Assembly (NCBI GenBank): GCA_964016885.1 | Contig: OZ024742.1 | Span: forward strand, 278,442,001 to 278,506,000 | Direction: 5' to 3' | Length of the DNA: 64,000 bases | DNA from: Eledone cirrhosa | Lineage: Eukaryota | Shown here: one piece after another, positions 4,306-56,143 of the stretch | How the letters are laid out: each line of letters starts with the position of its first letter | How positions within the stretch are numbered: position 1 is the first letter of the stretch | Notes under the pieces: model-generated | The model's database searches: none | What the model was told of the DNA's origin: nothing | The model's input: only the letters and a program-made list of their open reading frames with translations | Made by a program: the position numbers and the translations under genes

Positions 4306-4611
4306 CATATTCATTATTACTACAATTCTTGTTATTTGTAATGAAGAATTTCATAGGAATCCCTCGTGACTAGAGAGGGTATGTAAGCCATGTGTGTCTT
4401 AACAATATCTTGACAGGGCTTACAATCTTTCTTTCTTAACCGACAGCCTTCAATGTTAACGGTCCCTCGATGATTGTAGAAATATGGAAGCCATATGTGC
4501 CTGATACATTCACTTAAATATTTTCACTTACGATTCTTTATAATCTCTACCGTCATAATTGTTAAACTCTAATGACTAAGATATACACATAACTAATACA
4601 TACATTACATG

Positions 4612-4651
<40 letters not shown>

Positions 4652-4913
4652 GGTGTGTGTGTGTGTGTGTAGATATACGATTCTTTATAATCTCTACCGT
4701 CATAATTGTTAAACTCTAATGACTAAGATATATACATAACTAATACATACATTACATGTATGTATATATATATATATATATGTGTGTGGGTGTGTGTGTG
4801 TGTGTGTAGATATACGATTCTTTATAATCTCTACCGTCATAATTGTTAAACTCTAATGACTAAGATATACACATAACTAATACATACATTACATGTATGT
4901 ATATATATATATA

Positions 4914-4944
<31 letters not shown>

Positions 4945-5036
4945 AGATATACGATTCTTTATAATCTCTACCGTCATAATTGTTAAACTCTAATAACTAA
5001 GATATACAAATAACTAATACATATATTACATGTATG

Positions 5037-5152
<116 letters not shown>

Positions 5153-5233
5153 CGATTCTTTATAATCTCTACCGTCATAATTGTTAAACTCTAATGACTA
5201 AGATATACACATAACTAATACATATATTACATG

Positions 5234-5283
<50 letters not shown>

Positions 5284-5285
<2 letters not shown>

Positions 5286-5395
5286 AACCAGTAAGACCCC
5301 GATGGCTGAGCTCAAGCCGTTTCGACGGCTAATTCTGGACTAAATGAAAATTTATCCTGGTATTTAAATAGCCGAGCTTCTCAAGGGGTAATTCC
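5284..5395 (-). ncRNA. Inverted copy of the U3-A8 hammerhead (cleavage triplet mutated to AUC)
   Basis: Reverse complement of 6595-6706 with few substitutions. Confidence 0.7.
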
Positions 5396-6594
5396 ATATA
5401 TGGTCAAAGTGATTGTCAAGAGTCAGTAGTAATTCTGTGATTGCAAATTAGTAGGGGAGATGGTGGCTAAACCTGCCAGTAGGAGAAAAAGGGGAGGGGT
5501 GGAGTAGACCCAATCATGCGTGGGGGTGGGGGGTGGGGGTAGACTAGGGCTATAATACCCCACTTGCTGATTTTGCAATGGCTTACCCCTGCTTGCCAAG
5601 GGAGACGTAAGATCTTCTTTTTATTCTTTTATCGCTTCCTTTATTTCCTTCTTCCCCCATCCCTCCTTAGTCCTTCTACCCCAGTTCTTCTTTGTCGGCG
5701 TCTTTTCTCGCCCACCCGAGGCTGTCCTTTGGCCCCTTGTAGCCTCAGTACCCCACCCCTCCCCTAGTCTATGATAGATTTGGCGGACTCCGCTTTTTAT
5801 AGCAGTTGTGTTAGACCTCGGATACTTGCCCCCTTTTCCGACCGCTCCCACTATTTTCCGTGCTTTCCATATTTCTTAGTGGCACTTATGCCTTATTTTC
5901 TCGTTTCAGTATTTCCCTCTTCTCTTTTCTTTTGGGCGGGGTGGATTCTGAATTTATTTTTCCCGTATCCTACCTTTATTTTGTACGAACTTTCATGTAG
6001 CTTGTATAAGATCTTTTAGAGTTAGCATTAGTATATATTTTTTTCGGGACTCAGAATTATTATCTCTTACTAGTTTACTTTGCTGCACTGGGTGGTTGCT
6101 GGCATTGCGCCCGGGAAAGAAACCTTTATTATTTATAGCGTGGTAGTTTCTTTAGTATTTTGGCCCCATTTGTTGACTCGTCACCGTATGATTTACGTAC
6201 TTATACCTCTTAAAAGGGTCCTTGCCTATTCCGTCCCACCTAGTTTATTTACTTATTTCGTTATTTCTTTATTTCTTTCTTTATTTCTTTCTTTCTTTAT
6301 TTATTTATTTATCTAGCCTAACAATAGCTAGAGACTTAGGTCGTAGAACTTGCTTTTATACTTTTTTTCTTTACACTTATTCGCTTTTCATCACTCTCAG
6401 TATTTTTTCGTTCTCCCCCTCCCCAGTATCTTCTTTGACCTCATGCCCAGCTGTAGCTGGGACTACCAACGCATGATTGGGTCTACTCCACCCCTCCACT
6501 TTTTCTTCTACTGGCAGGTTTAGCCACCATCTCCCCTACTAATTTGCAATCACAGAATTACTACTGACTCTTGACAATCACTTTGACCATATAT

Positions 6595-6706
6595 GGAATT
6601 ACCCCTTGAGAAGCTCGGCTATTTACATACCAGGATAAATTTTCATTTAGTCCAGAATTAGCCGTCGAAACGGCTTGAGCTCAGCCGTCGGGGTCATACT
6701 GGTTCC
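6595..6706 (+). ncRNA. Type I hammerhead ribozyme, U3-A8 core variant; predicted cleavage GUC^ after 6689
   Basis: Stem I ACCCC/GGGGU plus GGAAUU/GGUUCC; core UUGAGAA; stem II G-C then CGGCUA/UAGCCG with a branch hairpin; GAAA; stem III ACGGCU/AGCCGU; GUC. Confidence 0.78.
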
Positions 6707-6785
6707 TATTACCCACTCTACTACCCTAAGTATTGAGTACTTTGGTGCGTTATGGTCCACCTGGTTCCTTACCACATTTCCTTCG

Positions 6786-6829
<44 letters not shown>

Positions 6830-6911
6830 AGATATACGATTCTTTATAATCTCTACCGTCATAATTGTTACACTCTAATGACTAATATATACACATAACT
6901 AATACATATAT

Positions 6912-6980
<69 letters not shown>

Positions 6981-7389
6981 AGATATACGATTCTTTATAA
7001 TCTCTACCGTCATAATTGTTAAACCCTAATGACTAAGATATACACATAACTAATACATATATTACATGTATGTATATATATATATATATTCATATATACA
7101 TGCACGCTTCCACACAGAAACACACACATACACACACACAAACACACATACTCACACATTCACAAGCACACACACACACACCCACGCATCCACACCCACA
7201 CGCGCACACACATGTATAGAGGCACACAGAAACGCGCACATACATACATACACACTCACATATACATATATGCATATTTATATATCATTGTTAAAAGAGA
7301 AATCACCTAATTTTGGCGAACGTCATGATTAAATTAATCTGAAAGAATTGTCGTTGGACGAGCACACATAGACACATACACGCACTTAC

Positions 7390-8496: not shown

Positions 8497-9888
8497 CGTT
8501 TCTGAATTTGTTTAGCAAGATTCTTTATCTGAAAACGTGTGTTGAAACCGATATTGTTATACTTTGGGAGGGTCATGTTGCCAATAAGAAACACACGCAC
8601 CAGAGGTTTTCCTTCAATTTATTATAATAAATTTATAAATTTAGGAATTTATAAATTTCCGGTTGGTTGGTTGGTTGGTTCCACAGCCAGATGATTGTTT
8701 ATATATTGTCAAAGTTCTTTCGTCACACATTCTGTGACCTCTTCAGTGACTGGGGATTCTTTTCTTTGTTTTTGTGCCTCTCCTTTGTTCTGTCCTACGC
8801 CATCTTGTTTTTGTGTGTGTTGCGTGCTTAGTTTGCGCATGTGTCACATCCGGGTGTCTGTGTGTGTTTATATTCGTTTATTCATTAGTTTATTTACATG
8901 TTATGGTTGGTTGTTTGTTCTATGTGCGTGTGTGTTTTCATTTTGTCCTTAATTGTAAGTTGTGATGTTGCTGTTCCATTCATGTTTTCTATTTAATTTT
9001 GGTTGGAGTTCATTTATGTTTATTGCCTCTGTGATTTGTCTAAACGTTGCGTCTTTTCTGTGTGTAGATTTTATTTCTATTTCTATGTTCTCTAATTTAC
9101 CCTAATGTTCTATTTTAGCATGTTGGTAGAGTACAGATGATTCTCTACTATCTTGAAGGTCTCGCCAGTGTTCATTTATCCGTTCCCCTATACTACGAGC
9201 TGTCTCACCTATGTACACTATATTTTTATCTCTACATTGTCCTTCAGTACATCTTATACTATATACTACATTTCTAGTTTTACAGTTAATATGGGGGCTT
9301 AATTTACAGATTATACATTTCTTATCTATACAGGGAGGTTTTTGAAAAAAGCTATGTATTCCTAATAAGTGTTTTTATGGAGGTACCTGGTCTTTCTACT
9401 ATCTTAATATTGAGTTTATGTTTATCTAGGGCCCATCTAAATTTGTAAGGTAATTCACCTCTAGGGGTTGTATCGATGAACATTACACTCTGGTATTTAT
9501 TGCTATGAGTTTATTCTATTAACCTTATTCCTAGTACTTTCTATTCTATTCCAAAATTTGCTCCTATACAAGGGGAAGGTCGCATATGTGTCATTATTTA
9601 CCATTTTTTTCCCATTTGGTTCTGGCTCTTCTATATTGTCTGATTTTATCTCTCTGATTGTAACCAGAGAACTGCATACGGTGGATGAAGTGTTGTATGT
9701 GTCTCTCTAGTCCTTTAGGGTTGCACATGCGGGACACGTTTCTCATCACCCGTACCAAATCCGCAATCAGTATGTTGCCAACCAACCGGAAATTTATAAA
9801 TTCCTAAATTTATAAATTTATTATAATAAATTGAAGTGAAGCACTGGTGCGTGTGTTTCTTATTGGCAACATGACCCTCCCAAAGTAT

Positions 9889-30116: not shown

Positions 30117-30194
30117 CAAAGGAATTGTGGTAAGGAACCAGATAGACCATAACGCACCAGAGTGCTCAATACTTAGGGTAGTAGAGTGGGAAAT

Positions 30195-30311
30195 AGGAAA
30201 AAGTATTACCCCGACGGCAGAGCTCAAGCCGTTTCGACGGCTATTTCTGGACTAAATTAGAACTTTTAGCCTGGTGAATAAATAGGCGAACGTGTTAAGG
30301 GTGTACTTCCT
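30195..30311 (-). ncRNA. U3-A8-type hammerhead copy (core decayed to UUAACAC, GUC intact)
   Basis: Homologous to 6595-6706; distal stem I AGGAAG/UUUCCU, same AUACU bulge. Confidence 0.6.
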
Positions 30312-32016
30312 TATATGAGAAGATGGTAGTTGTCAAGAGGATTGGTTAAAATTTGTTGTAAACACAAATAAGTCTATCATGGCATTTGGTGGGAGGTAGG
30401 GGTGGCTGAACTTGCCTGTAGAACAATAGGGGAGTGAGTGGAGCGGTCAAGCGTTGAAGGTGATATGTATACAGAAGATTCTAAGGATAGTGTATGAAGT
30501 GGAGGAGGGAGGTTATAGAATAGGTAAATCGAATGAGAGTAGGGGGACAATAAAAGATAATAGAAAGAAATAAAAAAATATATAAAATTAGATAGTGAGA
30601 AAAGAATAAAAAAAATCACAATGCTATCTTACAATTACAGGTTAATAAGTTGAGAATAGAAAAAAACTTGTAGAATGAGTAGTAACAAAACTGATACAAA
30701 ATTAAAGGGGTTTTAACACATCTGCTATAAGTAGTGAGTAAAACGTATTCGGCCAATTCTATCTTAAAATAACAAGGGTGGGGGAACTGATGCTACAGAG
30801 GCCCGTTGGGATGCATCGAGGTAGGTGAAAGGGGAAAAGCAGACGAGGAAGAAAATAGGGGGTGGAAGGAAGTGATAGGATGAGACAGGGGGAAGAAGAA
30901 GACAAAGAGGAAAAGAAAAGAGATACATATACCTATGTAAGCTGAGGTTTTCCCTAACTTATTCGGCAAGTGGGGGGTTATCAGCCCTTATCTACCCACC
31001 CGGGTCGTTATGGGGTTTGAGGGCGAGGTAAGTCCTACGCAATTTGTGTATGCATGCGGTTACCAGTTCGTCTTTCTTGTTTAGGAGTTAGTCCTTCGAA
31101 AACAGCATTTGTAATGTTTCCTCCGAGCATAATTTACACGGACGGCTTCCTCCCGTGTAATAGTTAGCTCCAGACAGTAAGTTCCAAGTGAGATTGTAGG
31201 TTATATTATTATCTTGGAGGTCCCAGATGTGGCCCGAAAGTGTAGTGACATGTCGCCAGACCGGATTTCGGGAAGTATGTCGGTGTTGGTAGAACCGGGT
31301 CTTGAAGTCACACGCGGTTAATCCTATATAAGCTTTGTTGGAGGTGTCCGTCCTCACGTTGCACTGGTAGATCACGTTACGTTCTCGGCATTTGTTGTTG
31401 AGGGGGCACGTAGATCTACCAGGGCAGTTACACCTCCTAGTTGGCTCTCCACTGATGTTTAGGTTATTTCTTCCATAGGGGTTGAGCTTTTTGTTGTTTG
31501 AGGAGACGATATTTTGTGCGAAGTTAGGTGTGGTTCTGTAGATGATTTTGATGGTGTTTTTGTTGATTATGTTGTGGTAGCGGTGTTGTAGTGGGAAGTG
31601 TTTTTCGAGGAGTCTAAAAAGATTTTCCCGATTGGTGTTGCGACCTAGGCATTATGGGGAGGATTGAACCACGTTACGTTGCGTGAGTGGTGGTGTCGCC
31701 TGCTGGATTCGCTAAGGGAAGCTGGATAAAAGGATATTTCCCCCCGCAAGCCACTCCCCTTGAGGGCCTTGTTGTAATGAGGTGCGTGTTCGTCGAATAT
31801 CTGCTCATTAGCGACAAACGATATATGCGGAGGGAGATGTTTTCAACCAGGTTATTGGTGATGTTTCTAGGATGGTTAGAGCGGCGGTGGATGTAGTGCA
31901 GGTTGTCGTTTGGTTTCCTGTATGGGTAGTACAGATAATTTTCGAGGGTAAAGGTAACGTCCAGGAAATTGACTCGGGTTAGGGACATTTGTAGGGTGAT
32001 TTTAAATCCCCAGTCC

Positions 32017-33940
32017 TATAAGATCTGTAACCTTTTCCACCTGGTCAAGAGAATTAAATTCAAAACCAGACACGACAGATTCCTACAACAACTCCGTAGC
32101 AAAATAACAGAGTATGGAAACACCAACGACATCATGGTGCTCTCGGACAAAACAGGAAACCTCTACTGAGAGATACCACACACTGATGAGGAGCAGCCTA
32201 AACTCCACCTATAAAAAGGCTAACCATTCAAGTATCGAGGACATAAATCGAGATGGACAACAAATTACCTCCAGCCTCGGCGTCGCCGACCGCACTGAAC
32301 CCCTAGACATACGGACTCCCTACTTCACACTGAAGGACCACAAATCCGACTTCGACCGCAAACCATCCATTAGGCTTATAAACCCAACGAAGTCGGACAT
32401 AGGGAGAATCAGTAAAAAGATCCTAGACCGAGTTATATCAAAAGTTAAGCAAAACGTGAGACTTAGCCTATGGGTCAGCACCCAGGAAGTAATCTCATGG
32501 TTCAGGAATATGGAGGACAAACGAGACACAAAATTCATCCAGTTTGACATAGAGAGTTACTATGCATCTATTACCTTTCCGCTCCTTACGGCCGCCTTGC
32601 ACTTTGCCGAAACACTCACAACTATCACTGAGCAGGAAAGAAATATCATTCTCCACGCCAGGAAAACAGTCTTACTTTTCGACAATCTTAGTGGATAAAG
32701 AGAGCTCCCGACCGCCCCTTCGACGTCAGTATGGGCACGACGGATTCGGCCGAGGTCACAGATCTTATAGGATTATTACTACTATTTAAACTCACCGAAA
32801 TGTTTCCTGCATTCGGTGGTGGATTGTACCGGTATGATGGGCTCCTCACCCTCAAAGAGTACAACCCCAGTCGTACAGACCGGGTCCGTAAACAACTAAT
32901 CAACTTCTTCCGGGACTAGGGATTTTAAATCACCCTCCAAACGTCCCTAACCCGAATCAATTTCCTGGACGTTACCCTTAACCTCGAAAATTATCTGTAC
33001 TACCCATACAGGAAACCAAACGACAACCTGCACTACATCCACCGCCGCTCTAACCATCCTAGAAACATCACCAATAACCTGGTTAAAAATATCTCCCTCC
33101 GCATATCTCGTTTGTCCGCTAATGAGCAGATATTCGATGAACACGCGCCTCATTACAACCAGGCCCTCAAGCTGAGTGGCTTCCGGGAGTAAATATCCTT
33201 TTATCCAGCTTCCCTTAGCGGATCCAGCAGGCGACACCGCCGCTCACGCAACACAACGTGGTTCAATCCTAACCATAATGCCGAGGTGGCAACACCTATC
33301 GGGAAAATCTTTTTAGACTCCTCGAAAAAGAATTCCCACTACAACACCGCTACCACAACATAATAAACAAAAACACCACCAAACTCTCTTACAGCACCAC
33401 ACCTAACTACGCACTAAACATCGTCTCCTCAAACAACAAAAAACTCAACCCCTATGGAGGAAATAACCTAGACATCAGTGGAGAGCCAACTAGGAGGTGT
33501 AACTGCCCTGGTAGATCTACGTGCCCGCTCAACAACAAATGCCGAGAACGTAACGTGATCTACCAGTGCAACGTGAGGACGGACACCTCCAACAAAGCTT
33601 ATATAGGATTAACCGCGTGTGACTTCAAGACCGCTCTACCAACATCGACATACTTTCCGAAACCCGGTCCGGCGACATGCTACTACACTTTGGGGCCACA
33701 TCTGGGACCTTCAAGATAATAATATAACCTACAATCTCACTGGGAGCTTACTGTCCAGAGCTAACTCTTACACGGGAGGACGCTGTCCGTGTAACTTATG
33801 CTCGGAGGAAACATTACAAAAGTTGTTTTCGTAGGACCAACTCCTAAACAAGAAAGACGAACTGGTAACCGCATGCATACACAGATTGCGTAGGACTTAC
33901 CTCGCCCTCAAACCCCATAACGACCCGGGTGGGTAGATAA
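32017..33940 (+). pseudogene. Disrupted PLE RT-GIY-YIG ORF (Hydra type)
   Basis: TLKDHK, IRLINPTKSDIG, FIQFDIESYYASI, FDVSMGTTDSAEV, GLYRYDGL (YRDD mutated), NFLDVT, CNCPGRSTCPLNNKC, VIYQC..AYIGLT, CNLC; frameshifts and stops. Confidence 0.9.
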
Positions 33941-34610
33941 GGGCTGATAACCCCCAACTTGCCGAATAAGTTAGGGAAAACCCCAGCTTACATAGGTAGA
34001 TGTATCTCTTTTCTTTTCCTCTTTGTCTTCTTCTTCCCCCTGTCTCATCCTATCACTTCCTTCCACCCCTTATTTTCTTTCTCGTCTGCTTTTCCCCTTT
34101 GGCCTACCCCGATGCATCCCAACGGGCCTCTGTAGCATCAGTTCCCCCACCCCTGTAATTTTAAGATAGAATTGGCCGAATACGTTTTACTAACTACTTA
34201 TAGCAGATGTGTTAAAACCCCTATAATTTTTATCAGTTTTGTTACTACTCATTCTACAAGTTTTTTCTATTCTCAACTTATTAACCTGTAATTGTAAGAT
34301 AGCATTGTGTTTTTTTTATTCATTTCTCATTATCTAATTTCATTTTCTTTTCTTTGTTTCTATATTCTTTTATTGTCTCCTACTCTCATTCGATTTACAT
34401 ATTCTATAACCTCCCTCCTCCACTTCATACACTATCCTTAGAATCTGCTGTATACATGTCACCTTCAACGCTTGACCGCTCCACTCATTCCCTATCGTTC
34501 TACAGGCAAGTTCAGCCACTCCTACCTCCCACCAAATGCCAAGATAGACTTATTTGTGTTTACAACAAATTTTAACCAATCCTCTTGACAACTACAATCT
34601 TCCCATATAA

Positions 34611-34715
34611 AGAAGTACTCCCTTGACAAGTTCGTCAATTTATTCACCAGGCTAAAAGTTCTAACTTAGTCCAGAAATAGCCGTCGAAACGGCTTGAGCT
34701 CTGCCGCTGGGGTCC
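34611..34715 (+). ncRNA. U3-A8-type hammerhead copy (core UUGACAA intact, cleavage site mutated)
   Basis: CCC-UUGACAA-G...UAGCCGUC-GAAA-CGGC UUGAGCUCU GCCG-CU-GGGGU. Confidence 0.65.
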
Positions 34716-34719
34716 TATA

Positions 34720-34785
<66 letters not shown>

Positions 34786-34787
34786 TA

Positions 34788-38087
<3,300 letters not shown>

Positions 38088-38099
38088 TATATATATATA

Positions 38100-38185
<86 letters not shown>

Positions 38186-38462: not shown

Positions 38463-38502
<40 letters not shown>

Positions 38503-38507
<5 letters not shown>

Positions 38508-38648
38508 AAGTATGACCCCGACGGCTGAGCTGAAGCCGTATCGACTACCCTAAGCATTGTGTATATTTGGTGGGAGGTAGGGGTGGCTGAACTTACCTGT
38601 AGAACAATAGGGGAGTGAGTTGAACGGTTCCTTACCACATTTCCTTTG

Positions 38649-48759: not shown

Positions 48760-50723
48760 TATAAACATGAGTATATCAGTAGTTGCATGCTCCATCCAGC
48801 GTCACCAGATCAAGGTTAAATGACCAGCAGGGGGTTCCGAGGCCAGCGCTATATGGAAAAAGACAGAATACATGAAGCACATAATGTCATAAAATGTCTT
48901 AAAAATTTAAAAATTAAAAAATTAAAAATTACACCAAAAATGTATCACTTAGTTGGTGCAATAGATGATAAAGAGGTTGAGAGAGGGTAGCAAGGGATGA
49001 GTGAGGGTATTACTCAGCATGATCAGAAACAATAATAAAATAATAAAAACATAATAAAAAAGTACAAAAATACAGGGATAAGAAAATTTTGATAAATACA
49101 AAAATACAAAACAATAAAGGAGCAAAAAGCCCGGAAACCCCAGAAAAAAAAATATAAGACAAAGCCAAGCATAGATGCATCAAAGCACAAGCAGTGCAAA
49201 AAGAAGGTGTACAGGCAGATCAAGAGAGTTTGCAAGCATGTGTCTGTGAAAAGAATAGTTGGTTAGCAGTAATGCAGCCTTACATGTATGATAGTCCATA
49301 TGAGGGATAGTGTACTTCAATTATATCGCCTTATAACAGGTCGATTCTCCCTAATCATATCCACACCCTACGAACCACATCGATATGTTCCCGTTCCGAA
49401 TGTTAAGTGAGATAACACTATTTTTTCAAAACCTAAACCCAGGGGATTTAATAGCATAGGCTGTCTGGGATATACACCTAAAATCTACAATAAAAATAAA
49501 AGAAAGTACGACGAGTTAAAGAAATGTATGGCACATATACAGCCGGCACAGATGTGAGGAAATTGAAAACATTCGGTCACTCAATCCAACGTGCAGGTGA
49601 AATTCACTGTATGCCCAAGTTGGCGTTCAACCAATGTATCGCACCGCATACAACTGTACCACAGTAAATATAAATTGTGATGGCAATCCCGTTACATATA
49701 GAGAAAAAGTGTATACAGGAAACTCCGCTTCCAGAATCACATATAGCAGAATGAGCATATATTGTTATAATAATAGGCGGGTTTATTATAGTGAGTGCAA
49801 ATTTCTGTAGAATATATACATATATATAGAAGGGAGAACTCACAAACAAACCTGTCTATGACAGTTATGTTATTTATATTTCCGCCACGTGGTTTTCGTT
49901 TAGATTATTGACTCCGGAGGTTGTGACCCTTCCTGTGTCGGCGGGAGTTCAATATCCAGTACTGCACTTTGCCTTGAGTGTGTTTCTATAATTTATCAAA
50001 GCTGGATCACAATTCATATTCAAATAACTCCAAGTTTCAAAGATTCGTCTCTCGCTATTGACACACAACGGTATTCTGAATATAAACACAGGAAGTCGTA
50101 GTGTACGTATGAAAGGTATGGGAGGCAATTCGCGTCATAAAGGGCGGATTCATTTGATATCCAATGGGATGCTAGGGGCGAGTCTTTTGTTTGATTCGAA
50201 CCCCTCGGCGATCAACCTCCCCTTCCCCATGGGGCTAGGTCGATTCAGCGGCGCCCAGTCCTCGCGATTTGCTAACATAGTTCTCTATACTAGGTTAGAT
50301 CTATTACACACTTTAGGTTTAAGGTTAACTAGACCCCGGGTGCCCAATTCACCCGCTTTATAGCTGCGGCGACGTTTCCTGGGATGTCAACAGACTATAG
50401 TGCTGTGCTATCAGTTAGCGCACAATGGGTGTGTTTATATACCATACTAACATGGTTAGTGTGGGTATGCGCATCTATAGGGTCATGCTGTGATAGGTAT
50501 AGTGAAAAGCCTTAAGTAGGTTCAACCCCAGGGTTCTTGGCTTGTGGTCCAATAAGATGAACTATGGAAGAGAGGAAGAAAAGTAAGAGAGGGGAGAAGA
50601 GAAGATGTATTAGAGTAGTCTATATACACCTGAAGGGCAGTTATCGTCACAAAGGAACCAGGATGCAGTGAGGCGTGGTTTTACGTAGGCCAGACAGGAC
50701 GGATGTATGCATGTCCTACAGCG

Positions 50724-53340
50724 TTAGCTAATTGGTCTAAAATAATAGAAGGAGCTAAGATTTATGTGCGGGCAAGAAGAGAATATCTCCGACTTCCTAT
50801 TTAGCAGGTTCAGTTTGGAGTGTATTATGGCGTGTGATTCGGAGAGACAAATGTCACAGGTCTTGTTAGGGGGTCTGTACTGCGATGATTTAGTGATGAT
50901 TCTCCAATCAAGCGTGTATTGAATATCAGTGTTCTTCAAGAGGGATTTGTAACTAGCTAGGGATGTAGTATTCTTAAGTCCATCATGTCTAAATGTATAG
51001 CGATGGGAGTTGTATCTGGTCTTAAAGGGGGTCGATGTAGACCCTATATATGTTTTGGAGGAGGTCCGAGTTGTAACATCACATGCGTAGACAATATTGT
51101 TTATAAGGCATTGTCCCTTTAGGGGGCAATCCGTCTTTCGTCTGCAGTTACATTTTCGGTGCATGTGAGTCTGCGGCACAGGAGATGTTTGGTTTTCCGT
51201 GCGTTCCAGATTCGGCAACCGTACATCAGATGTGTGGATAGTATTGCTGGGTGACGCCGCATCAGGTCCATCTAGTGTTTGCCGGTGTGCCGCAGCTGCA
51301 ATGGTATCGAACACCTTTCTAATTTTGTTGTTGTCCGTTATGGCTAGGTGACGAGCTAAATTTGGAGTAGTGGAGAATGATAGCTTAATTGTGTTTTTAT
51401 TAATGATACTATGGTATTTACTACCGGGGGGTCGGGTTTCCAAGATCGAGAAGAAAGCCTTTGGTATATTGGTTGATACCTCCGAGTTGTAAGGTGGATT
51501 AAAGTAGATCTTCGTCTACTTTTCTTATTTTTCGTACTCGGGGAAGAATTGGTGCTGGGCATAGACAACCCATCTTCCGTGGTAGAGAGAACCTGGGGTG
51601 GTAACCTTACCCGGATGGGTTCACAGGCTTCCCTGTCTTTTCCATTGCACTTCAATTTTCTAGATTTTATCCTAGTGTTAGTGTTATTGCCATACCGATG
51701 AGGCGTGTTAAATAGAGTGCCTTGAGGTTGGTCAGAGCTGCCTACAGTACCCGTGTAGTTCCTATTTTTGTGTCCGCTTCTATGAAGCAATGCCATATTG
51801 TGTGTGATTACATTATATTTTCCGACCCTGGTGGTTTGGGCGTTGTTATGTATGTAGTATATTTTTTCTCTAAAACCGGACTTTACTAGTGCTTTATTAT
51901 AGTACCTTGCATTAGACCTAAATGCATGCTCATTATGCGATAGTCTGCTAATCCTGTTAGATACCCCTTTAATTATGGCATTTCGGACGGGTCTAGGGTG
52001 GTTGGAATTTGCATTCACGTATGTTAGTGTTTCATCTGGCTTGTGATAGGGTGAGATGTACTTATTTTCCAAGTCCAGAGTTACGTCTAGAAAGTTAACC
52101 GTTTTATTATTTATGTCTATCGTTATGCTAAGGTTAAAGCTCTTGAAGAATTTATGTAGTTTTCTTCTCGTCCTTTCTATATTATGTTTTTTATATTGAA
52201 TAGTGAACAGGGCGTCGTCACGGTATAGCCCGCCTTTGAAATGCGGGAATGTTTTATGCAGTTTATGTAGGGGGTAAAGTCCAACCAAGTCAGTGACCTG
52301 CGCCGAATCGCTGGACCCCATTGTGACATCAAAGTTATTCGGCGTGTTCTTTCGGGTCCAACGTTGGTCTTCGAAGAGGATGATAGTTCTCCGGGCAGCA
52401 ATTTGGGATCTAGTCAGGTCACTATTTTGCATAGCTAATATAAGGGCCTTATTTAGAAGGATGGGCGAGATCGAGGTATAGTATGAGTTGATATCGAATT
52501 GGATGAACTTCAGGGAGTTATGGTTACTAATGCTTCAGAATCATTTAATGACCTCCTCAGTATTCCCTCATAGGTCAAGGTAAATTTTACTTCGTATAAC
52601 AGGGATGACGGCGTCCAATATTTTCTTACTTATTATCCCTAAGTCTGACTTAGAGGGGCTAATGAGCCTAATTGAGGGGTTACTAAGGAAGTCCTCTTTG
52701 TGATCCTTCAGTTTGAATATGGGTTGCTTAGGGCCGAAAGGCTGGGTGTACCTTTCCAGGTTCAGCATCTTAACGATTTCTAGCCCTATCTTATTTATCT
52801 CGTCTAGGTTTCCATAGGTAGTTTTCTTATAATTTCTGTGGAGTTCCCTGTATATGAAATTTCTGTAAGTCTTGTAGTCCAAGTTATATAATTTTTTTGT
52901 TTTATCTGAGGGACGAGAATGTTAGCATTTTCCTCGAAGCCCTTAATAATAGAGCTAAGATCTCTACGGAAAGGGTTCTTGCTATGGCTTTTAGTCCTAT
53001 ATCTAATACTCTTCACAAGGTTTAGAAGGTCGCTTTCAAAGCCATCCAGACCACTATTGTGCGGTGGGCTCTTGCATGTCTTGAATCCATACCTATTTAC
53101 CCGGGTTGTTTGCTGAGGGTTATCCCGGTTCCTATCGTAGTGGAAAGCACGCCACCTTAATCTTTTAACAAATGAGTTTACGCTAGTTATGAGCAACCTT
53201 TCGTAAGTATTCCTAGATGGGATGGGAGTGTTCTTGAGTGACAAAGGTAGATGATCTTTGGTTAGCATACTGTCAAGTTTATACACCAGATGGACAATCA
53301 TATGGATCATTTTGCATATATGTACTCTGTGGTTTTGCAT
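50724..53340 (-). pseudogene. Near full-length Hydra-type PLE ORF (RT plus C-terminal GIY-YIG), disrupted
   Basis: SLKNTPIPS, KRLRWRAF, KLKDHK, FIQFDINSYYTSI, FDVTMGSSDSAQV, GLYRDDAL, VNFLDVT, CNCRRKTDCPLKGQC, IVYAC..TYIGST, CDIC. Confidence 0.92.
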
Positions 53341-54143
53341 TTATTCACTATTGGTTCTGTTCTTTTCTTTTCTTTTGTGTACTTTATGTCTGTTTTTCTT
53401 TGATTTTGATTTTCTTTGATTTTGTGATGGAAATTATGACTGTGTAACAGATTGACTAATGCCCTGTAGTCTGCCCTCCGTTATAATGTACGGCACTGTC
53501 GTTCAATATGTGGATAGAGTAACTGTGACACTAGAATCCCTCTCAGAACTTATTACTTAAACATCTCTCTGCATATTATTTACTCACTTCAATCTATATT
53601 TTTACTCAGTCCGAATTATCACTTGAAACATTTTTGAATTTAGAATTTTTGAATTTTTAGTTGTTTAATTTATAATCTCTGATATTTAATTTAGGATTTT
53701 AATTTTTAATATTTATTTCCAAATCTTAACTTACAATGTAAAACCACGGTACCTAGAATTAAGTTAATTTTCCCTTATGAGTTGATGGTCAGTCTTGCTG
53801 TCAACACTTAGTGAAAGGTAGTGTTATGACCTATAAAAACTAACACCCTCCCATGCCCTCTGGCTTTCGGCTGACTGCCACAGTAGTGATGGGTAGCAGT
53901 AAACTTTGGTAGGGCATAGGTGGGCCATTGTTTTGGCCGTGAGGGTGAACTGACAGCGCTTTTCGTTAAAATCTGCGGTGGCTAATGGCCAACTTCCTTT
54001 GGACATGCGCTTGCGCAGACCGGTGGGGGTGAATTGGTACTCACAAGGGAACGGATGAAAAAGCCAAAAGCACGAACTTCATCCGTTCCCATGTCGATTC
54101 AGTTTGGATTGCCTCGGAAACATAACCTTATTATGTAACAAGC

Positions 54144-54376: not shown

Positions 54377-56143
<1,767 letters not shown>

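Follow-up and report, generated by a model that had tools for sequence, protein, structure and literature searches.

Penelope elements of the Hydra clade are characterized by a single ORF, by RWK, DKT and CxCX5C motifs and by the lack of CCHH (PMC8557442). Hammerhead ribozymes were described as universal in this clade by Craig et al. (PMC8557442), so that the statement in the sequence-only reading of the present locus that canonical ones were not reported there does not hold; the role of the hammerhead in Penelope elements is called still unclear in the same source. The U3-A8 pair is also not new to Penelope, because about 1,300 such motifs are known in Schistosoma elements (Cervera and de la Pena 2014, PMC4209133). 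Penelope hammerheads were assumed to be normally minimal, i.e., without a large helix III, but monomeric types with a large helix III were already published from fungal and protist elements, and the one of Serpula cleaves as a monomer (PMC4209133). U3-A8 cores occur naturally and were reported active, and a weak stem II is tolerated (PMC3088659). In the anole Penelope PAc, the one system studied biochemically, cleavage was protein-assisted and unnecessary for insertion, and RNA reads with a start or an end at the cut were not found (PMC11167929).

The window, i.e., the whole stretch of 64,000 nucleotides analysed, carries a type I hammerhead motif at 6595-6706 (+), which is a copy of subfamily S1 and departs from the S1 majority at 2 of 112 nt. 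The 5' strand of stem I was assigned to 6595-6605 (distal 6595-6600, proximal ACCCC 6601-6605) and the 3' strand to 6690-6706, with GGGGU at 6690-6694 and a variable internal loop at 6695-6700; tail-less halves of insertions stop just past 6706. The core UUGAGAA at 6606-6612 is read as U3-U4-G5-A6-G7-A8-A9, in which, by the established hammerhead structure (PMC3088659), U3 (6606) pairs with A8 (6611), replacing C3-G8. Stem II (6613-6666) consists of the pair G10.1 (6613)-C11.1 (6666), a 2x1 internal loop, a helix at 6616-6621/6659-6664, and a variable inner domain containing a hairpin at 6633-6653, and the spacer from A9 to G12 is 54 nt long. GAAA at 6667-6670 is G12-A13-A14-A15.1, with G12 at 6667. 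Stem III, of 5-6 bp, pairs 6670-6675 with 6683-6688, ends in U16.1 (6688) and has the palindrome GAGCUC (6677-6682) in its loop. The predicted cut lies between C17 (6689) and G1.1 (6690), and genomic copies start in excess at 6690.

Stem I ACCCC/GGGGU, the core, GAAA, stem III, its loop and GUC were all found where the sequence-only reading had placed them. U4, G5, A6, N7 and A9, G12, A13 and A14, the A15.1-U16.1 pair and H17 of the type I core are present within 6606-6689, and the core is surrounded by three helices and G10.1-C11.1, with the pairs kept and several two-sided changes. The 3-8 pair is Watson-Crick in this copy, which is not the case in 1,569 C3·A8 relatives. Stem II was described with a branch hairpin; the G-C pair, the 2x1 loop and a helix of 6-9 bp hold, but the branch hairpin varies between families. 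No conserved loops for a tertiary contact of stems I and II were found, i.e., the stem I loop had 12 changes at 7 sites across nine subfamilies and the inner part of stem II is family-specific. The AUACU bulge in this loop is not conserved as claimed. A6696 is private to the 6595-6706 copy, and the match to AUACU is accidental because this base departs from its own subfamily.

Rfam hammerhead models gave no match in 6540-6785 at E up to 10, and no hammerhead was among the best 150 of 266 Rfam matches of the whole window. The motif is missed by Rfam, as expected from the first reading, and also by CUGANGA descriptors using short spacers, which undercount such motifs. The Rfam miss reflects the limits of the models rather than non-membership among hammerheads.

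An abundant Penelope family carries the motif in its terminal repeat, between the 3' UTR and the tail or next ORF. The tail, of about 80 nt, occupies 6707-6786 (+) in the window. In a tandem copy, locus L419, the motif is followed by the tail, and the tail passes into the 5' UTR that precedes an open frame of about 717 aa; this frame is linked to the motif and UTR of the family. The frame is a single ORF with RT and then a C-terminal GIY-YIG, and shows RWR, DKT, YRDD, CxCX5C (CNCPDRSIC), YIG, CxxC (CNLC) and CxH (CKH). As in the Hydra clade, the CxCX5C linker, CxxC and CxH are present and CCHH is absent (by eye), with RWR for RWK, and the (TA)n targets and the inverted and tandem arrangements agree as well. 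The element therefore shows the Hydra-clade motifs, as had been proposed, the assignment being made by motifs. The canonical small hammerhead of the clade is not found here, i.e., the core is a variant and the spacer has 54 nt, and the oldest relatives have the canonical core. Homologs at about 40% identity numbered 2,217, almost all of them unnamed, and a Pfam search of the L419 ORF found no family. At 3879-4082 of L419, no stop interrupts the reading frame between the first ATG of the ORF and stem III of the motif, some 68 codons further upstream.

Two other groups of hammerheads were compared. Non-LTR retrozymes are non-coding hammerhead tandem repeats, but the inspected copies are dispersed truncations and inversions of a coding element. 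In the minimal dimer type helix III is absent or 1-2 bp and has a palindromic loop, whereas helix III here is 5-6 bp; the palindrome is present.

Four full-length motif copies and one fragment were identified in the window, i.e., 6590-6708 (+), 5282-5400 (-), 30194-30315 (-), 34606-34727 (+) and 38501-38628 (-). The insertion at 5281-6786 lies within (TA)n and is composed of a 5'-truncated direct half (5522-6786, +), which is 3' UTR only with no ORF, and an inverted tail-less half (5281-5524, -) with a second hammerhead copy at 5395-5284 that has one stem III mismatch. A tandem array of a unit of about 140 bp (4529-5283 and 6787-7100) is split by this insertion. An older inverted insertion of subfamily S6 (30193-34728), in which the RT and GIY-YIG frames are broken, contains the hammerheads 30194-30315 (-), with a dead core, and 34606-34727 (+), with a broken cut site. 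Both copies that were cited earlier for covariation are therefore damaged. The 34611 copy, regarded as intact, has UUGACAA, but GCU replaces GUC at the cut site, stem II is mismatched and the sequence stops before the distal stem I arm; the 30195 copy has the dead core UUAACAC instead of UUGACAA.

Other elements are present in the window. A further RT and GIY-YIG element with 241-nt inverted ends (34717-38143, +) adjoins the S6 insertion, and by its motifs we take it to be Neptune-like. A second, broken Hydra-type Penelope family with RWR, DKT and CxCX5C and a long insert before the endonuclease was found at 50200-53900 (-), and a hammerhead was not found in a relaxed scan of its 3' UTR. Three units of about 460-500 bp stand in tandem at 54700-55800 (-), and every one of them has a canonical minimal hammerhead with a CUGAUGA core, GAAACUAGUA; they seem to be a retrozyme-like or Penelope-derived tandem. 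A single canonical minimal hammerhead of a different family is located at about 8700-8750 (-).

Exact pattern searches were run on the 3.0 Gb genome. The U3-A8 pattern had 5,839 matches, far more than by chance when compared with 70 for a reversed control pattern, and the C3-G8 pattern 53, compared with 9; the C3·A8 and U3·G8 patterns had 1,569 and 49, each against 0 in the control, but they are tighter than the other two and the counts are not strictly comparable. The tail of about 80 nt had 44,575 matches. From 210 loci and the window, 195 distinct full-length copies were collected, most loci being chosen by pattern or similarity and not as a random sample, and sorted into 13 families, each with a majority sequence. 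The oldest family, F1, is 20% from its own majority; among its 13 copies that were collected without regard to the core, 12 show C3-G8. F2 is 12% from its majority, and its 28 copies include 13 with U·G and 10 with U-A.

A tree was built from 69 copies and about 550 columns with positions 3 and 8 masked, omitting short copies and using at most 6 copies per family (10 for F2). F1 has C-G, F2 and S8 have U·G (F2b U-A), S7 and S6 have U-A, S5, S4b, S4 and S3c have C·A, and S3, S2 and S1 have U-A again. Nodes around the C·A stretch have a support of 93-100, those of S8-S7 one of 61-75. A constraint that groups the 18 C·A-subfamily rows was rejected (p-AU 8e-61, 57 rows). The young U-A copies thus appear to descend from the mismatch lineage, provided that the tree is not distorted by recombination between subfamilies. 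On the subfamily tree, the order of the 3-8 pair is shown as C-G, U·G, U-A, C·A and U-A. The C·A mismatch persisted for about 0.36 substitutions per site of UTR evolution (summed branches). A C3·A8 mismatch strongly lowers hammerhead activity. The C3-G8 copies in the young family were considered as compensatory changes, and this was rejected; they fit single A-to-G changes from the C3·A8 subfamilies.

More distant relatives were also seen. Still older ones (F0), with the canonical core and the same 3' half, were found at about 1470-1600 of loci L072 and L081. A separate family at about 1490-1590 of L065, L074 and L079 has the canonical core and a stem II domain of about 55 nt, with a Hydra-type endonuclease close to it in L065. 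Large stem II domains may be widespread in this genome. Metagenome scans for the motif in other taxa gave 0 loci in one and 3 in another, and 0 of these 3 matched the model or the architecture.

Among the nine subfamilies S8-S1, 0 changes were counted at 12 core and 30 stem sites, compared with 140 at 134 flank sites. The type I core bases are invariant and the GAGCUC palindrome is identical in all 13 family majority sequences. The 16 core and stem sites upstream of the promoter hotspot described below are likewise invariant, which has a probability of about 1e-7 at the flank rate. By these comparisons of copies, purifying selection on the core and stems is shown. N7 changed 3 times across subfamilies, with all four bases used, but it is not the sole free position as supposed. 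N3 and N8 together also had 3 changes in S8-S1, i.e., 1.5 per site, as fast as the flank.

Covariation is more modest. Two-sided changes between families were found at I.4, II.3, II.8, II.9 and 3-8. Over 15 natural copies, 84% of the cells are paired in the structure, compared with 33-50% when it is slid. In a shuffle test of these copies, 6 pairs had two-sided changes, compared with 6.0 after shuffling, and the score was exceeded in 10 of 500 shuffles. Stem III is invariant and therefore carries no covariation. For distal stem I, the claimed covariation has partial support, with 85% of cells paired and a two-sided change in one pair.

The predicted folding is less favourable. For the 6595-6706 copy, the minimum free energy (MFE) was -29.8 and the hammerhead fold -27.4, i.e., 2.4 kcal/mol above, at 1.4% of the ensemble. 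A competing hairpin in the MFE structure traps GAAA (P=0.72). The gap between hammerhead and MFE across families is 0.8-3.9 kcal/mol, the RNAalifold consensus is the competing hairpin and not the hammerhead, and the folding z-scores are -0.75 to -1.73. With the hammerhead fold 2.4 kcal/mol above the predicted minimum, monomer competence of this RNA is no more than possible.

The ends of genomic insertions point to the cut. Copies starting at G1.1 (6690) gave 793 pattern matches, of which 21 of 30 inspected were true junctions; by eye, 47 of 100 listed matches were true and the rest were mostly intact copies with an extra G, so that about 370-550 true insertions beginning at 6690 are estimated. 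Controls of the same design gave 66 starts at -3 (29 of 30 true) and 109 at +3 (27 of 30 true), counts which are raised by GTC microhomology. Many 6690-start junctions are blunt to (TA)n, or have both halves ending at G1.1 with one extra base. In 7 of 13 such copies the end of the inverted partner lies at 6690 as well, compared with 0 of 14 and 2 of 18 controls (one of the 2 being a mutated copy). In an unselected sample, i.e., the first 100 tail matches listed on contig C1 (99 distinct, 98 mapped), 7 of 99 copies start at -1 to +1 where about 1.9 are expected (Poisson P about 0.003, with 21-22 background ends), 58 start at -35 to -48 and 9 reach beyond -135. Among short insertions, 9 of 34 distinct ones start at the cut, and every other position has 4 or fewer (by eye). 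The excess by tail type, by eye and in small numbers, is 6-7-fold in S1/S2, 3-fold in mixed S3/S4 and 1.5-fold in S6. S6, which is also U3-A8, had 4 of 47 compared with about a quarter of controls (by eye), which is at odds with a simple pairing rule. The pile-up of insertion starts at precisely 6690 suggests that the motif likely cuts its own RNA in vivo, as an indirect footprint, and the position of the cut after 6689 given in the first reading is supported by these genomic ends. Reports of insertion ends at a hammerhead cut, or of such a 3-8 series, were not found among the open papers listed in searches. Separately, an additional G stands at the cut site in 46 of 100 listed 6690-pattern matches, and many of these copies are S6-like; it is either slippage in a G run or a scar of religation or template jumping.

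Most short copies start elsewhere, near 6649. This main 5'-end hotspot of genomic copies (6642-6655, +) is inside stem II and centred on TTAGTC (A = 6649), which is TCAGTC in S2. Its AGT is present in all 13 family majority sequences amid a variable region, and an extra G, which would be a cap signature, stands in 13 of 40 copies. TTAGTC presumably resembles an initiator. Penelope elements have internal promoters within their repeats (PMC2377424, PMC6765202). The hotspot ends lie off the bases of the strong stems, and this speaks for an RNA start rather than a stall; 6642-6655 is likely the initiator of an internal promoter. The first reading contained neither this likely start nor the insertion ends at 6690 nor the 1,569 C3·A8 copies.

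The reading that we consider quite probable is that of a type I U3-A8 hammerhead in a Penelope terminal repeat, which would cleave itself in vivo after 6689, probably in only some transcripts. Those that read through from an upstream element would contain the whole motif and would be able to cut. Transcripts from 6649 would start without the 5' half and would not cut in cis. Reverse transcription primed at (TA)n would begin at the tail end or just past stem I and run off the RNA 5' end, so that genomic 5' ends would record RNA 5' ends, i.e., the cut in about 5% of copies and the promoter start near 6649 in about 60%. Cleavage is likely slow, being gated by the competing hairpin. It would not be needed for insertion, because uncut templates are copied and the C3·A8 subfamilies amplified well. 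The MFE gap, the modest covariation, the fast 3-8 change, the long C·A phase, the weak S6 excess and the lack of a conserved contact loop count against self-cleavage, and so does the anole Penelope, where RNA ends at the cut were lacking and cleavage was dispensable. As a tentative extension, the genome might preserve a dated history of in vivo ribozyme activity and evolution, in which tens of thousands of short insertions map the promoter start and the cut, and the 3-8 walk tunes the cleavage of a ribozyme overlapping a promoter.

Some of the same observations could be explained with little or no catalysis, if a hammerhead-derived motif now persists as a structural or sequence signal, i.e., for promoter, protein binding or RT start, and the ends at 6690 are RT stops. 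The amplification of the C3·A8 mismatch to 1,569 copies, the main hotspot within the motif, the invariant stem III and GAGCUC downstream of it, the minor share of the hammerhead fold and the dispensability of cleavage in vitro in another Penelope (PMC11167929) are consistent with this. However, the unpaired U4, G5, A6 and A9 upstream of the hotspot are invariant, yet N7 is free. Stops at the base of stem III are expected at -1/-2, whereas the observed ends are at 0/+1, and both halves are blunt at 6690, often with one extra base. We consider a signal of this kind unlikely. The C3·A8 subfamilies also raise the question of RNA editing, i.e., A8 changed to inosine to give a C-I pair. The inverted insertions yield long double-stranded RNA, and the host may, as a guess, be a heavily editing animal. 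Editing would be expected to leave A-to-G copies, but about 11 of the 53 C3-G8 matches are in C3·A8 subfamilies, compared with 1,569 C3·A8 (under 1%, by patterns that differ), and in run X1 all A-to-G changes stayed below 5%. A footprint of such rescue was not found, and the rescue is very improbable.

Cleavage mainly as a dimer or in trans, which we find rather doubtful, shares the cut-site footprint and is compatible with the self-cleaving reading. The palindromic loop would join two RNAs, or read-through RNA would lend its 5' half to promoter-initiated RNAs. The GAGCUC loop is identical in all 13 families, the monomer fold is disfavoured in the folding models, and metazoan Penelope hammerheads are assumed to work in dimeric form (PMC4209133, PMC6765202). 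On the other hand, stem III has 5-6 bp within one molecule, compared with 1-2 bp in dimer types, and the palindrome may be a signal at the DNA level.

If the reading of the insertion ends is true, they have a big meaning as rare in vivo evidence of a ribozyme, obtainable from the genome alone, and the method could be transferred to other Penelope families. In the subfamily ladder one ribozyme occurs naturally with C-G, U·G, U-A and C·A in known order, which makes it a test set for compensatory evolution of a catalytic pair.

Compared with known systems, the family is nearest in core to the Cercyon Penelope of Schistosoma mansoni (PMC4209133), which has a type I motif with U3-A8 in its terminal repeat and over a thousand genomic copies. 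The Cercyon hammerheads, however, are minimal, have no helix III and need dimers, whereas helix III is 5-6 bp and the spacer 54 nt in the present family, and all four Y3-R8 states occur in its one lineage. Canonical Hydra-clade hammerheads share DKT, CxCX5C, the absence of CCHH, (TA)n targets and the sense motif at the 3' end, but in all Hydra entries listed the core is CUGANGA, the stem II loops are short and stem III has 3-4 bp with loops of 1-3 nt, and none of those listed has the present architecture (PMC8557442, File S2). Fungal and protist hammerheads with large helix III are alike in the stable helix III and in having no recognisable loop I-II contact; their elements are endonuclease-less and telomere-associated (PMC4209133), whereas the present element bears an endonuclease and a variant core. 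Anolis Poseidon PAc (PMC11167929) resembles the family in the terminal-repeat hammerhead, two RT starts defining the tail, AT-rich targets and the uncut RNA template, but in vivo ends at the cut were absent in the data described there, whereas genomic copies of the present family pile up at the predicted cut. The motif is a real hammerhead variant under selection. Its interest now lies in the architecture within the Hydra clade, the insertion ends at the cut and the series of 3-8 states; the features that the first reading took to be new had each been published separately.
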